Part shown: positions 13,632 to 48,941 of the stretch, in pieces
Layout: each line of letters opens with the position of its first letter
Numbering within the stretch: the stretch's first letter is position 1
Source: Escherichia phage dw-ec
Sequence record: OL739525.1
Length of the DNA stretch: 64,000 bases
Direction: 5' to 3' (one strand)
The notes under the pieces: generated by a model
Seen by the model: the letters and a program-made list of their open reading frames with translations, nothing else
The model's database searches: none
What the model was told of the DNA's origin: nothing
Position numbers and translations under genes: made by a program

Positions 13632-14243
13632 ATGATTCAATGCACTCATATCCAAATTACTTGGAGAGATGAACTTTACCATTTGGGACAATTTACTGTA
13701 GGGGAGACATACCCTGTCATTAAACATAATCCTAACATCGCAAACTTTGATAGGATGGTTCTTGTTGAGGACGATCTGGGTCAAACTTATTCTTTAGATC
13801 TAAAATATCCGTTTTCTTACGGCTACGATTGGATCGTTACTTTTGAAGACGTGGAGGAAAATAAAACAATGAACGAAAAAAATTCTTGGTATTATCGTTG
13901 TGAACTGCCGCCAGTAGGTGAAAAGGTTATCTTTGTTCCTGATTTGGAAAGATATTCTTGGGACAGTTCTTATTCTGTTCCTAAAGAAGGCACCGAAGTT
14001 GAAGTTATTGCACATCGCACGACTTCGCATGGTAACGATGTAGCAGTTGTTTTCTGGGATGATGAAGGCGCTGCTTGTGCAGGTGGCTTTGTTGCAGGTA
14101 ACTTTGAACCCCTGCCAGATCCTTTGAAGGAGGCAATTTTAGGCGTAGCTTCTTTTGGACTCTCTTACACGTCTGCACAGGAGATCGTAGAAGGTATTTT
14201 AAACGGTACTGTTCCAAACGAAATTTTCAAACAGATTAAATAA
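13632..14243 (+). CDS. hypothetical protein
   Basis: ORF with RBS gggggtgattttATG. Confidence 0.5.
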   Translation: MIQCTHIQITWRDELYHLGQFTVGETYPVIKHNPNIANFDRMVLVEDDLGQTYSLDLKYPFSYGYDWIVTFEDVEENKTMNEKNSWYYRCELPPVGEKVIFVPDLERYSWDSSYSVPKEGTEVEVIAHRTTSHGNDVAVVFWDDEGAACAGGFVAGNFEPLPDPLKEAILGVASFGLSYTSAQEIVEGILNGTVPNEIFKQIK

Positions 14244-21413: not shown

Positions 21414-22096
21414 TATTTCTCCTTATCTAGAAGATTGTTAGACAAAAACACTGCACGAGCAAAACCACGTGCGGTTAGTGATCTAAGTTGTTTTGTTTTT
21501 GCACTAGCTCCACCTAAGCTTTTCCAACCCCAGAAGCAGCCTATATGATCTACTGGTTTCTTCACTGGTTGAACAAAACCGTTGCCGTGCCAAATACAAG
21601 TTTTCTTTGTATACCCATCACGGGTAGGCATTTTAGGATGAAAGCTTCCTTCCTCTTCAAACAAATACCCACCATACTCATAAGGATCAAAGTAAAAATC
21701 GGGTTTACGCCATAAGGTTGAAAGTTTACCTACTGGGTTCTCAATCATCCAAGGAACATTATATTTGTTACCCAAAGCTTCCACTACACGAATATTAGCT
21801 AAAGCTTCATCCAATGCCTCTGTGCTGCGTTCGTGTTTGCTACCACTACCTGCTAACATAGTGCAAGGTGGAAATCCAAAAATAATATCGGGTTTAGGTA
21901 TCCCATGATCTTCAGGGTTGAATGTAGAATCTATCCAGGCATTCACATAGGTTATGTTTGGGTGCTCCATCCTAACCTCGTATTTACCGTGATCCCCTTC
22001 ATCAGCGTTTACACAAAAACATTTGTGACCTGCTTCGGCATAACGTAACACCATGATCCCAGATCCGTCAAACATAGACAAAACTGTTTTACTCAT
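21413..22096 (-). CDS. DNA (cytosine-5)-methyltransferase-like protein (short, catalytic core only)
   Basis: motif I-like SMFDGSG, motif IV GFPPCTMLAG (PC), motif VI IENPVG (ENV); start set at internal ATG with RBS ggagggg. Confidence 0.5.
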   Translation of the reverse strand: MSKTVLSMFDGSGIMVLRYAEAGHKCFCVNADEGDHGKYEVRMEHPNITYVNAWIDSTFNPEDHGIPKPDIIFGFPPCTMLAGSGSKHERSTEALDEALANIRVVEALGNKYNVPWMIENPVGKLSTLWRKPDFYFDPYEYGGYLFEEEGSFHPKMPTRDGYTKKTCIWHGNGFVQPVKKPVDHIGCFWGWKSLGGASAKTKQLRSLTARGFARAVFLSNNLLDKEK

Positions 22097-22502
22097 TACC
22101 CCTCCATTCAAGACAAGCCATAACTTTACGCCAATCACTTTCTGTAAGAAAAATCTCGTTTGCTTTCTTCCACAAATCTAAATCGTGAAGGGTTGGAATA
22201 CGATATGTTAGTTCACAGAATCTATGCTCTTCTTCTGTAATATAACCAAAATGCAGAGCCACATCGTGAAACCAACACCAACCATGCATCTCTCGAACAA
22301 CATGGTCATGTTGAGACATTATTTTATGCCGTAAACCTAACCAACAAGGAACAGATACTTTAGTAGTCTTTAATCTGTGATCAACAGTATTAGAGTATTC
22401 AATAATAGCTGTCAGTTTCAATCGTGCTTTTTCTAAATCCTCATGGGTCACTTTGAAATAACTTTCTGAAAGATATCCACACATATTAATAACCTCCTTC
22501 AA
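22089..22502 (-). CDS. hypothetical protein
   Basis: ORF in operon, 137 aa. Confidence 0.45.
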   Translation of the reverse strand: MKEVINMCGYLSESYFKVTHEDLEKARLKLTAIIEYSNTVDHRLKTTKVSVPCWLGLRHKIMSQHDHVVREMHGWCWFHDVALHFGYITEEEHRFCELTYRIPTLHDLDLWKKANEIFLTESDWRKVMACLEWRGNE

Positions 22503-29454: not shown

Positions 29455-29477
29455 GTTTAAGAAATGCCCCCGAAGGG
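29455..29477 (-). terminator. intrinsic terminator (minus strand)
   Basis: hairpin gcccc-ttcg-ggggc followed on the minus strand by a T-rich run. Confidence 0.5.
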
Positions 29478-29485
29478 GCAGTTTG

Positions 29486-30178
29486 TTAAATAGCGGTTTC
29501 TTCGAAATCCGCCACATTTACGAGATTAATATTTTCAGATTTAGAAGTCAAGTTGTTTTCTGCAACAGATTTTTCTTCAGTATCCGCCTCGTTACCTGCC
29601 ACGTTACGAGGTTCTTCTTCACCGTAGGGATTACCGAATTTCAAAAGATTGATTAATTCTTCTTTGGAGAAGTTTTCTAAATCATCATCTGTTAATTCAA
29701 TAATCTCATCTTGTTCTTCAATAAATGTTTCACCACCAGAAAAAGCATCTCGCTTTTTAGCTACTTCCATAGCCTGTTCTGGTGTTGCTCCTGCATCAAG
29801 AGCAGCTAAAGCAAAGTCTGACCCGCTTCCTACCGCATAATATTCTTCATCAATCGGATATGCACGTGTTGGGTTGTTACCTTCGTGCAGGAAAATACGT
29901 CCATCTGGATGAACAACAAGTGCAATAAACTCTTCATCTTCTTTATCTGGATCAGAGTGAATCATCAAACCAGGGACAGCATCACGTGCTGCTTCGCACT
30001 GTAGATTTTGTTCAAACCATTGAAAGAAAGAAAGCACGGAGGTCAGACGACCAGCACCGCCTACAAGGTAATCTCCAATTTTTCGGACCTTTTTGAAATT
30101 AATAGAATCTACACGTCCACCAAAAGTTACCTTACCGTCACTCAAAATCTTATTTTTGGTCGCAATAATTGTCGTCAC
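29486..30178 (-). CDS. HslV-like Ntn-hydrolase peptidase with acidic C-terminal extension
   Basis: N-terminus MTTIIATK (Thr nucleophile after Met), GSGSDFALAAL resembles the HslV GSGG motif; about 60-aa acidic tail. Confidence 0.55.
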   Translation of the reverse strand: MTTIIATKNKILSDGKVTFGGRVDSINFKKVRKIGDYLVGGAGRLTSVLSFFQWFEQNLQCEAARDAVPGLMIHSDPDKEDEEFIALVVHPDGRIFLHEGNNPTRAYPIDEEYYAVGSGSDFALAALDAGATPEQAMEVAKKRDAFSGGETFIEEQDEIIELTDDDLENFSKEELINLLKFGNPYGEEEPRNVAGNEADTEEKSVAENNLTSKSENINLVNVADFEETAI

Positions 30179-30681
30179 TATTCTTCCTCCTCTGTTAATG
30201 TTTTAAGAACCGCTTTCCCGCCATTCACATATTTGCAGATGTATTCTATCGCACGTAGTGTCTCTTTGTCAACAAAAATTTGATCAGACGTTGCGAGCGG
30301 GTTATTAAGAAGATCACTGCAATCACGAACAAGCAGTGCTTTCTTATTAAACAAATTACTTAAGAACAGTAACTTCGCCTCTTCTTCTGTTATGTGCAGA
30401 AGGCTAGGATCGGAGCCAGCTATTCCTATTATACAATCAAACAAGCTTTCTTTACTATCAGAAAGTTCTTGAAAATGGTTTAAAAGCCAATCTTCTCCTA
30501 GACACCAACATTTAAACATTTCCAGTTTATCTCGGAGGGTCATATTCTCTAAAGTAAGAGCAATCTCTTTTTCAATATGGTTTACACAAATTTGACGAAA
30601 TTCGTTAGGTTTTACGAGTCCCGTTTGATAGCACTCATCTATACCGCTTCTTCCGATAGCTATTGTTGCTACACCCATCAA
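30178..30681 (-). CDS. hypothetical protein
   Basis: ORF, 167 aa. Confidence 0.45.
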   Translation of the reverse strand: MMGVATIAIGRSGIDECYQTGLVKPNEFRQICVNHIEKEIALTLENMTLRDKLEMFKCWCLGEDWLLNHFQELSDSKESLFDCIIGIAGSDPSLLHITEEEAKLLFLSNLFNKKALLVRDCSDLLNNPLATSDQIFVDKETLRAIEYICKYVNGGKAVLKTLTEEEE

Positions 30682-30713: not shown

Positions 30714-31472
30714 TTAAATAAACACTTCAGTAATCAGTTTAGACAAACGTCCACGTTTATTATCGTCCGTTGTCAGTTCAACATATCCAATAAAATCTAC
30801 AATTGGCTCACGAACACCCTCTTCGTTCTCTGGATATAAAAGTTCCAAAATTTGATGCAGACCATTGCTACGTTTTTTAATTGCATATGTCTGGCGAACA
30901 TCGCCTAATACAATAACATGCGTATTAATACCTGCACGTTCAATAAGAAGTTTAAGTGTTTCTGTTGACATAAGTTGTGCTTCGTCAATAATGACGATTG
31001 TATTATCCAGGGTAGCCCCCAACAAATAGTTAGGAATATTCAATTCGATCTTACCTGATCCAATATCGTTTTCCAATTTGTTGGCTGTCATGAATTGCTG
31101 GAAAATACGTTTTGTAGATTCATAGTGTGCTGCTAGTTTATCTGTTTTATCCCCAGACAAGAAACCAATCTGGTCATCTCCGACTTCAGTAGGGTTCTTG
31201 ATAAAAAGTAGTTTACGGAAGTCTCCTGAACGAAGCATCTGCAAAGCTTTCCATAAAGCAACAGAGGTTTTACCAGTCCCTGCCGGAGCATTTACAACAG
31301 TCAGATCATTCCAAATCATGCTTTGAACAATCTTATTTTGGTCCCCTTCAGGCATAAATTCATCTAAACGGTAATCGTCATTACCTACCGCTTTTGCTGC
31401 ATAACGGCTTTCAATCTTTGCTGAATTAGCCAGTTTCTGCCGTTGTGTTTTAGCTGCGGTTTTATTTCCCAT
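30714..31472 (-). CDS. phoH: PhoH-like ATPase
   Basis: Walker A APAGTGKTS, IIDEAQ, VLGDVRQ motifs; start set at ATG 31472 (RBS aaaaggag) downstream of the lysozyme stop. Confidence 0.75.
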   Translation of the reverse strand: MGNKTAAKTQRQKLANSAKIESRYAAKAVGNDDYRLDEFMPEGDQNKIVQSMIWNDLTVVNAPAGTGKTSVALWKALQMLRSGDFRKLLFIKNPTEVGDDQIGFLSGDKTDKLAAHYESTKRIFQQFMTANKLENDIGSGKIELNIPNYLLGATLDNTIVIIDEAQLMSTETLKLLIERAGINTHVIVLGDVRQTYAIKKRSNGLHQILELLYPENEEGVREPIVDFIGYVELTTDDNKRGRLSKLITEVFI

Positions 31473-31509
31473 AGTAGCACTCCTTTTAGAAGGGGCCGAA
31501 GCCCCTTTA

Positions 31510-32010
31510 TTAGTTGTAAGCATCTAAAGTTCCAGAAGTCAGAACTTTAATTACTCGTTCAGCACGGTTTGGCGTCTGGCTATACCATCGGCTTTTACGC
31601 ATGTTTTTACCTGCTTGAGTATAATATGCATTGCTGATTAAAGTCAAGCTATTTTGAAACCCTTCAGCACCTTTTAACCCCAACTGGAAAACCATGTTGA
31701 TTATTCCCAATTTACGAGTATCACTAACCTTATCATAGATTGGTGATAAGATAGTACTGTTTTTTATGTCTCTCTTCACTTTTGCAACATCGTCAGCAAA
31801 GATTTGACGGGCTTCTTTTTCTGTGATAACTCCATTAGTCTTACGACCAAGAAGATTATCTAAGATTTGAATAGCCTTTGCTTTATCTTTTATTTTAGTC
31901 AGAAGGTGTCCTATGCCGACTGTCCAATAACCAAGATGGTCTTGATAAACAGTAAGCTTCAGTCCTTCATCGACTCGTAGCATATCAAACTCATCTACTA
32001 CTTTAGCCAT
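31510..32010 (-). CDS. T4-type lysozyme (endolysin, glycoside hydrolase family 24)
   Basis: N-terminal FDMLRVDEGLKLTVYQDHLGYWTVGIGHLL closely matches the T4 lysozyme catalytic region. Confidence 0.85.
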   Translation of the reverse strand: MAKVVDEFDMLRVDEGLKLTVYQDHLGYWTVGIGHLLTKIKDKAKAIQILDNLLGRKTNGVITEKEARQIFADDVAKVKRDIKNSTILSPIYDKVSDTRKLGIINMVFQLGLKGAEGFQNSLTLISNAYYTQAGKNMRKSRWYSQTPNRAERVIKVLTSGTLDAYN

Positions 32011-48536: not shown

Positions 48537-48941
48537 TTATTGAAGTTTAAGTGAACCACGAAGACGTTTCTCTTGCTGATCACGAATATATTGTGGAACC
48601 TCGTGAATTGAATCATTACCGTGCCTATTTTCAACAACTAAAGAGATAACTTGATAACCAAACTCTTCAGCAAGAGTTAGATAAGGTTTAAGTTCTTTCT
48701 CTGTGGTTGAAGTGTTAGAAACAATAATCTTGTTAAGATTAGATGCCATAGCATCACGAACAATACTCTGACACCATGCGTGTGCTTTACCTACATTTTC
48801 TGGCTTCCAATCGTAAACACCACTTTCTGTATAATGATATTGATCTGCCTCACAGATAGGCCAATAACCTTCAGAAATAATTTCTGCTACCGTAGATTTA
48901 CCAGCACCTGAAACGCCACGTAAAATGATAAGTTGTTTCAT
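48537..48941 (-). CDS. P-loop polynucleotide kinase-like protein
   Basis: Walker A GVSGAGKST; N-terminus resembles the kinase domain of T4 polynucleotide kinase. Confidence 0.55.
   Translation of the reverse strand: MKQLIILRGVSGAGKSTVAEIISEGYWPICEADQYHYTESGVYDWKPENVGKAHAWCQSIVRDAMASNLNKIIVSNTSTTEKELKPYLTLAEEFGYQVISLVVENRHGNDSIHEVPQYIRDQQEKRLRGSLKLQ

Follow-up and report, generated by a model that had tools for sequence, protein, structure and literature searches.

The closest described relatives of the protein considered here are the phage proteasome homologues (PPH), a group of about 140 residues without helix H2 that was named by Fuchs, Alva and Lupas (2021), who reported the gene context of these families to be uninformative and stated no function (PMC8665760). 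The bacterial peptidase HslV has the same kind of active site, and its pocket for the C-terminal tail of HslU consists of Phe54, Phe57, Ala79, Lys80, and Gln114 (PMC6429459). Here we analyze a 230-residue proteasome-like peptidase encoded near a phoH gene in a 64,000-nucleotide (nt) stretch of Escherichia phage dw-ec (sequence record OL739525.1), referred to below as the window. The role of phage phoH, which encodes a widespread "auxiliary metabolic" ATPase, has been a long-open question since its adoption as a marine-virus marker gene, and a 2024 preprint states that no phage phoH has yet been functionally analyzed.

The window DNA is ~98.7% identical to phage phAPEC8 (NC_020079; Phapecoctavirus, Stephanstirmvirinae), and the peptidase is 99% identical to phAPEC8 gp175, which is annotated in RefSeq as "peptidase HslV family". 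The gene and a rough annotation of it are already public, as the family is catalogued and annotated in dozens of GenBank genomes. By tblastn, homologues are found in 235 phage records, with hosts including Escherichia, Vibrio, Caulobacter, Aeromonas, Klebsiella, Rhizobium, and Shewanella, and the literature yielded no experimental characterization of any family member. Taken alone, the peptidase is an ordinary member of this catalogued family of phage proteasome homologues. What matters is its context, in which two unrelated peptidase folds appear with one C-terminal module in one slot beside phoH. The PhoH-linked, core-swappable tail module is what we report as new, since we found no description of it in the literature. 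We consider it fairly probable that the protein is a PPH-type peptidase with a portable tail module, for which PhoH is only the most plausible of several possible partners.

Linkage to phoH and a shared C-terminal module

The peptidase gene lies within a conserved block of lysozyme, PhoH, (X), and peptidase genes, where X is an open reading frame (ORF) of 166 amino acids (aa). Together with genes for ribonucleotide reductase, thymidylate synthase, and glutaredoxin, these neighbors make up a nucleotide-metabolism cluster. To describe the context across the family, we surveyed 80 IMG/VR loci, 25 of them with long-form and 55 with short-form peptidases; the counts are raw and uncorrected for kinship. 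A phoH gene was found within 3.5 kb of the peptidase gene at 25/25 long-form loci versus 1/55 short-form loci. The genes between PhoH and the peptidase vary by lineage. PhoH is directly adjacent to the peptidase gene in Shewanella phage 1/4, and in an otherwise different context (contig L036) the pair adjoins a module of portal, scaffold, and major-capsid genes, with PhoH downstream, not upstream, of the peptidase. In Vibrio phage vB_VibM_10AMN, a 359-aa ORF (L006:2183-3262) that by eye resembles a LAGLIDADG-type homing endonuclease stands between the two, which would explain their larger spacing there.

The extension beyond the catalytic core comprises ~75 residues (156-230) with 21 Asp/Glu against 5 Lys/Arg. 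A preliminary description of this DNA, made from the letters alone, had counted about 60 extra acidic residues at this end; an acidic extension is indeed present, but it is longer and is not uniformly a tail, as residues ~156-184 form a conserved motif (motif 1) and only residues 185-230 are predicted to be disordered. The consensus of motif 1 is "LTxExLxxxSKEELIxLLFG", and its position is fixed in nearly all long-form relatives, down to ~31% identity, with the Aeromonas phage sequence ...EPLTREVAENLSKKELINMMFGEE and the Shewanella phage sequence ...PFSREQLANMSKDDILDTLFGKG as examples. The window's motif 1 aligns to the tail profile of Vibrio, Shewanella, and Aeromonas relatives with 92.6% probability. 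In many of these relatives the full extension runs from motif 1 through an acidic linker (the middle region) to a C-terminal motif 2 (...LGVKFPHNIGQDTLAQKLDDKVKEIV). A likeness of motif 2 to a SAP/HeH-like motif was seen by eye only, and we set it aside as unsupported.

Beyond motif 1, the predicted local distance difference test score (pLDDT) of the AlphaFold2 model falls to 77 at residues 181-190 and to 45-53 past residue 190. Identity to relatives is 0-39% over residues 185-230, versus 52-90% in the core of long-form relatives, and the tail that follows motif 1 in the relatives ranges from 4 to 197 aa. As motif 1 is conserved and residues 185-230 are divergent, the acidic tail is the least constrained part of the extension and the motif its conserved part.

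Vibrio phage ICP1 encodes a close relative of the window's PhoH, in the gene order ribonucleotide reductase, lysozyme, PhoH, gp209, gp210, gp211, and later ligase. At the peptidase position stands gp211, which is ClpP-like (PF00574, E=1.4e-11, residues 31-166) and has a 150-residue C-terminal extension. Against a profile of 17 tails of long proteasome-like proteins (A3), this extension aligned by hhalign with 97% probability (E=8e-11) over 121 columns covering motifs 1 and 2, and it was also found by hmmsearch (E=7e-14). On this profile evidence, the same C-terminal module is carried by two unrelated chambered-peptidase folds in the same slot beside PhoH. Since the module is common to the PPH-type long forms and the ClpP-like gp211, it would be a portable module on interchangeable chambered-peptidase cores. 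Phages of the phAPEC8 type and those of Vibrio, Shewanella, and Aeromonas have a PPH core, ICP1 and some other phages a ClpP-like one, with the module retained between ICP1 and the long PPH forms.

PhoH-ClpP pairs were also seen in Curvibacter phage P26059A, where 9 nt separate the two genes, as well as in three related contigs. A search seeded with a single PhoH protein returned 4 loci, all 4 with ClpP downstream. Such pairs are likewise on record for Rheinheimera phage Barba18A (gp072/gp073; PMC6715854) and Alteromonas phage V22 (CDS146/CDS147; PMC7289586).

Table 1. Features of the peptidase locus. Positions refer to the window unless another record is named.
Feature	Position	Strand	Remarks
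Peptidase ORF, 230 aa, complete	29486..30178	(-)	Stop at 29486-29488, start GTG; from ORF list and sequence
Catalytic core, residues 1-155	29714..30178	(-)	Thr2 (Thr1 after Met removal), Asp14, Lys30, G41-G44, G117-S118-G119
Motif 1, residues ~156-184 (QDEIIELTDDDLENFSKEELINLLKFGNP)	29627..29713	(-)	Two short predicted helices, 164-169 and 172-181; AlphaFold2 pLDDT 91-94
Acidic disordered tail, residues 185-230	29489..29626	(-)	12 Asp/Glu vs 3 Lys/Arg; fast-evolving
Shine-Dalgarno GAGGAGG	30186..30192	(-)	7-nt spacer to GTG start; direct sequence reading
Terminator-like hairpin TGCCCC-TTCG-GGGGCA and T-rich run	29465..29480	(-)	6 nt past peptidase stop; pattern scan only
ORF X, 166 aa, all-alpha orphan	30178..30678	(-)	TAG stop overlaps peptidase GTG; possible partner or regulator
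PhoH-family P-loop ATPase	30714..31523	(-)	Pfam PF02562, E=1.2e-36; basic N-terminal stretch of ~55 aa; candidate partner
ICP1_2017_F_Mathbaria gp211	MN419153.1 121507-122487 (L092:5237-6217)		Third gene downstream of PhoH gp208

Fold and active site

The peptidase matches the Pfam family Proteasome (PF00227) with E=1.1e-5 and 25.6 bits, above the gathering score of 22.4, and it matches PHROG_1040 ("peptidase HslV family") over its whole length with E=4.5e-63. Its best match among solved structures is HslV of Thermotoga maritima (E=4.9e-9). Judged by these matches, the resemblance to proteasome-like peptidases is far beyond chance. Proteasome-like folds are common in phages, as BFVD holds 47 matches with an E of at most 0.001, jumbo phages included.

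The MTTIIATK start and the GSGSDFALAAL motif given in the preliminary description are both present, the latter at residues 117-127. That description had also made its assignment hinge on the conservation of Thr1 and the other catalytic residues, which is borne out by an alignment of 54 diverse relatives (A1), where T2, T3, I4, D14, K30, and G117-S118-G119 are invariant in all 54. In a profile comparison (97% probability), T2, D14, K30, and G117-S118-G119 align to Thr1, Asp17, Lys33, and G123-S124-G125-G126 (GSGG) of E. coli HslV; the HslV query sequence differs from PDB 5JI3 at one residue. The start MTT is found in 131/145 representatives of family members clustered from a 1.8-billion-protein library. 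A Thr that follows the initiator Met permits removal of this Met by methionine aminopeptidase, so that Thr1 would be exposed without a propeptide. It would then act together with the GSG loop and the equivalents of Asp17 and Lys33, following the scheme of HslV and of proteasome beta subunits. On the strength of these conserved residues, the peptidase is very probably active as an N-terminal nucleophile (Ntn) hydrolase.

The preliminary description had raised the possibility of a decoy. In that case the protein, whether decoy or scaffold, would be catalytically dead and would function through its acidic tail, for instance by mimicking DNA or by sponging up a host factor. Acidity and disorder are traits that the tail shares with some anti-restriction proteins that mimic DNA. 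However, the acidic region is the least conserved one, to the point that the relative P0059 keeps only 4 residues after motif 1, and a decoy is most unlikely because Thr1, the Asp, the Lys, and GSG are invariant across the diverse sequences aligned and the MTT start is so widely kept.

Relation to PPH, HslV, and HslU

The peptidase fell short of both NCBIfam equivalog models for HslV, with 32.2 bits for NF003964 against a cut-off of 137 and 31.4 bits for TIGR03692 against a cut-off of 157.75. On these scores, the peptidase is not an HslV orthologue. In the AlphaFold2 model, one long helix (residues 45-67) is followed by an acidic coil or loop (residues 68-84, ...SDPDKEDEEF) at the position of HslV helix H2. 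In the profile comparison with E. coli HslV, the first hairpin shows a 4-residue deletion, and overall identity is 28%. The identification as HslV-type in the preliminary description is thus right for the fold and active site, which are proteasome-beta/HslV-like, but does not extend to orthology, given the ~32 bits scored and the absence of helix H2. Instead, we assign the peptidase as a long variant of PPH, on the basis of its PPH traits and of its match to PHROG_1040, the PHROGs counterpart of PPH. After the long forms, its next-closest relatives among the library cluster representatives are short forms of 137-155 aa.

The preliminary description had found no adjacent HslU-like AAA+ gene, and in the 64-kb window a scan of Walker-A ORFs and Pfam matches agrees, having found no HslU/ClpX-like AAA+ gene at all. 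Among the Walker-A ORFs, a family could be assigned to PhoH and to a small kinase-like protein, the latter a P-loop ORF of 134 aa at window positions 48540-48941 (-) (Pfam AAA_33, E=4.1e-10); two more Walker-A matches came without a significant Pfam match. Similarly, the part of the phAPEC8 record that starts at position 13,704 has no gene annotated as hslU or clpX. The only AAA-type ATPase found in the phAPEC8 genome is gp014 (NC_020079.1 139005-140144; L003:31606-32745), which lies outside the window. This 379-aa protein belongs, by a weak match (PF00004, E=8.7e-7), to the classic clade of AAA ATPases, with weak PDB matches (E ~1e-3) to Rix7, Cdc48, and VAT; it is kept across many large myoviruses, including Firmicute phages, and some records describe it as clamp-loader-like. 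We rejected gp014 as a specific AAA+ partner of the peptidase, as it is ~105 kb off in the linear record and also occurs in phages of Enterococcus, Bacillus, Staphylococcus, and Lactococcus, and the peptidase matches include none of these.

A hijack of host HslU had nevertheless been proposed. The phage peptidase would form HslV-like rings on host HslU, giving an ATP-dependent protease with altered specificity, or it would titrate HslU away from host HslV. HslV is the closest solved structure, and the phages seen with the family infect Proteobacteria, most of which have HslUV. In the pocket for the HslU tail (PMC6429459), the phage peptidase has Leu and Phe aligned with the H1 residues Phe54 and Phe57. 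In contrast, the pocket residues Ala79 and Lys80 belong to helix H2, which is missing from the AlphaFold2 model and replaced by the short acidic loop, and this makes HslU docking less likely. The peptidase also falls far under both HslV equivalog cut-offs and shares only 28% overall identity with E. coli HslV. As its extreme C-terminus is not conserved, mimicry of the HslU tail was rejected as an explanation of the tail end, as was an HbYX motif. Further, the core that bears the same tail module in ICP1 is a ClpP, which does not bind HslU, and this points to a different partner. We regard docking onto HslU as improbable and conclude that the peptidase probably does not use host HslU, which leaves the proposed hijack without support.

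Position relative to virion genes and dispensability

A role in head maturation (as a prohead protease) had been suggested as well, and a role elsewhere in virion assembly is a related possibility. Capsid maturation is the role of many phage proteases, and in contig L036 the portal, scaffold, and major capsid genes directly follow the peptidase-PhoH pair, with no other protease visible there. Against this, phAPEC8 gp117 (NC_020079.1 66487-66966; L002:8988-9467), encoded directly after the portal gene, matches Peptidase_S78_2, the XkdF-type prohead protease family (E=1.4e-11), as well as head-maturation-protease PHROGs; judged by these matches, its annotation as "DNA methyltransferase" is probably wrong. 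The proteasome-like gene is ~30 kb away from gp117 on the opposite strand, among the nucleotide-metabolism genes. We consider a head-maturation role very unlikely, since the phage encodes its own XkdF-type prohead protease beside the portal gene.

Escherichia phage VEcB (MT932211.1 ~21483-22337; P0066) bears on the same question. Here PhoH (window-equivalent residues 18-133) is fused in frame to the peptidase from residue 63 onward, a natural deletion by which PhoH loses its C-terminus and the peptidase its Thr1, with ORF X lost as well. The phage is viable with Thr1 deleted, which speaks further against head maturation, and since the deletion removes ORF X and Thr1, the peptidase gene is dispensable for propagation.

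Proposed role

We propose that the extension would serve as a module for docking the peptidase to a partner held in common, most plausibly the neighboring PhoH ATPase, the alternative being a shared substrate or nucleic acid. The peptidase itself would degrade or process host or phage proteins inside the cell in mid-infection, and we infer that it is an active intracellular enzyme independent of HslU. In a more specific form, which we advance only tentatively, PhoH would be the nucleotide-dependent partner of the adjacent chambered peptidase, the two making up a so far unrecognized two-component phage protease with the module (motif 1, with or without motif 2) as its docking element. Such a machine could possibly target RNA-bound or ribosomal proteins.

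Several observations weigh against this proposal. PhoH is a helicase-like P-loop protein and not an AAA+ unfoldase, and the literature describes no PhoH-peptidase complex. The lysozyme-PhoH-peptidase block could reflect synteny passed on by descent and not a functional coupling of its genes, the linkage counts being uncorrected for phylogeny. ICP1 has a close PhoH relative, yet tblastn detected no proteasome-like peptidase there, so PhoH does not require this peptidase family. The window protein lacks motif 2 and thus carries only motif 1 of the module, and the module is without a Pfam match, as searches with five tails returned none even at E up to 10. Finally, any activity, oligomeric state, or substrate given for a member of this family is putative.

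The main rival, to which we give a modest chance, is that the peptidase is not a bulk protease but a site-specific processing enzyme or ligase, perhaps acting as a monomer or in an open assembly on one or a few defined proteins of host or phage. Specific processing enzymes do occur among the proteasome-like proteins of mobile elements (bioRxiv 10.64898/2026.08.10.744006). Precedents for this role are Rrp (SP_1145), which acts by trimming the ribosomal protein bL27, and the ligase connectase. The absence of H2, a helix that takes part in inter-subunit contacts, is in keeping with this alternative. As PhoH relatives have links to RNA and ribosome processes, a PhoH-peptidase pair might act on ribonucleoprotein targets.

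If PhoH and the peptidase do cooperate, as we tentatively propose, the question of what phage phoH does would become directly testable in tractable E. coli phages and in ICP1, which infects V. cholerae. Such cooperation would also establish a new type of ATP-linked protease and would explain the absence of an AAA+ partner for these proteasome homologues.

Neighboring features and related loci

The GTG start of the peptidase gene and the TAG stop of the upstream ORF X overlap by one base (TAGTG). By pattern scan only, a sigma70-like promoter match, TTGACA-18-TAGAAT (11/12 positions), was found inside ORF X at 30243-30272 (-), ~65 nt 5' of the peptidase start. We considered ORF X as a universal partner of the peptidase and rejected it, as it is confined to Stephanstirmvirinae and a few related contigs. 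In the Vibrio and Aeromonas phages it could not be detected 5' of the peptidase genes, and its fold has no informative structural neighbor. A link to defense or anti-defense was also rejected: the peptidase, ORF X, and the downstream ORF gave no PADLOC matches, PhoH gave only generic helicase matches, and no such link was found in the literature.

The peptidase-linked PhoH proteins of the window and of three other loci (L004:3135-3929, L006:1312-2103, and L007:541-1326) have a basic start of ~50 residues, with 9-15 Lys/Arg in the first 55 residues. With basic PhoH N-termini and acidic peptidase tails, the two would be electrostatically complementary.

Between PhoH and gp211 in ICP1, the 60-aa protein gp210 is 42% identical to a 65-aa protein, Vib_65, that is encoded one ORF upstream of the peptidase in Vibrio phage 10AMN, and it has a similar "LSDEELFNVV" segment inside. 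Aeromonas phage 4L372D has a second proteasome-like ORF of 183 aa directly upstream of its long-form gene (MK813939.1 127736-128287; L007:3432-3983). Its product starts with (M)TCIIAL, has GDKLGS at the catalytic-Asp region, and has VGCGE in place of GSG. It aligns to the family profile by hhalign with 63% probability (E=6.8e-5), and its PF00227 match (E=0.013) is below the cut-off. These tandem paralogues might form a hetero-oligomer.

Comparison with known systems

When compared with HslV, the window protein is more than 100 bits under the equivalog cut-offs, lacks H2, and has the 4-residue deletion in the first hairpin; it has no hslU gene nearby and carries an extra C-terminal module. HslV, a dodecamer of two hexameric rings, has two helix pairs, H1/H2 and H3/H4, whereas the single-chain model of the window protein has one helix (45-67) and the coil 68-84 in place of H2. 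The Betaproteobacteria proteasome homologue (BPH, PDB 5OVS) likewise has both helix pairs; it is bacterial, forms heptameric double rings, and has no C-terminal module.

Rrp (SP_1145) of Streptococcus pneumoniae TIGR4 is, like the window protein, a proteasome-like Ntn hydrolase, and it is encoded on a phage-like mobile element (bioRxiv 10.64898/2026.08.10.744006). Among the mobile-element proteasome-like proteins that we encountered, it is the one with experimentally shown activity. Unlike the window protein, Rrp is Anbu-like, has extra domains, comes from Firmicutes, and is a specific bL27-trimming enzyme.

PPH shares with the window protein its occurrence in tailed phages, a compact proteasome-beta-like core without a propeptide and without helix H2 and the S12/H5 elements, a conserved Thr1/Asp17/Lys33 triad, and the lack of an adjacent unfoldase gene. 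The two differ in that PPH has ~140 residues, whereas the window protein has 230 aa with a 75-residue extension composed of a two-helix motif and an acidic disordered tail. Linkage to PhoH is not mentioned in the PPH paper (Fuchs et al. 2021, PMC8665760).

ICP1 gp211 ("ClpP ATP-dependent protease subunit"), in contrast, differs from the window protein in its core, which has the ClpP serine-peptidase fold (PF00574) and is unrelated to the proteasome fold, and in keeping motif 2, which the window protein has lost. Nevertheless, gp211 occupies the same slot in the order lysozyme, PhoH, small ORFs, peptidase, and ligase, and its extension is homologous to the full tails of the long-form peptidases.

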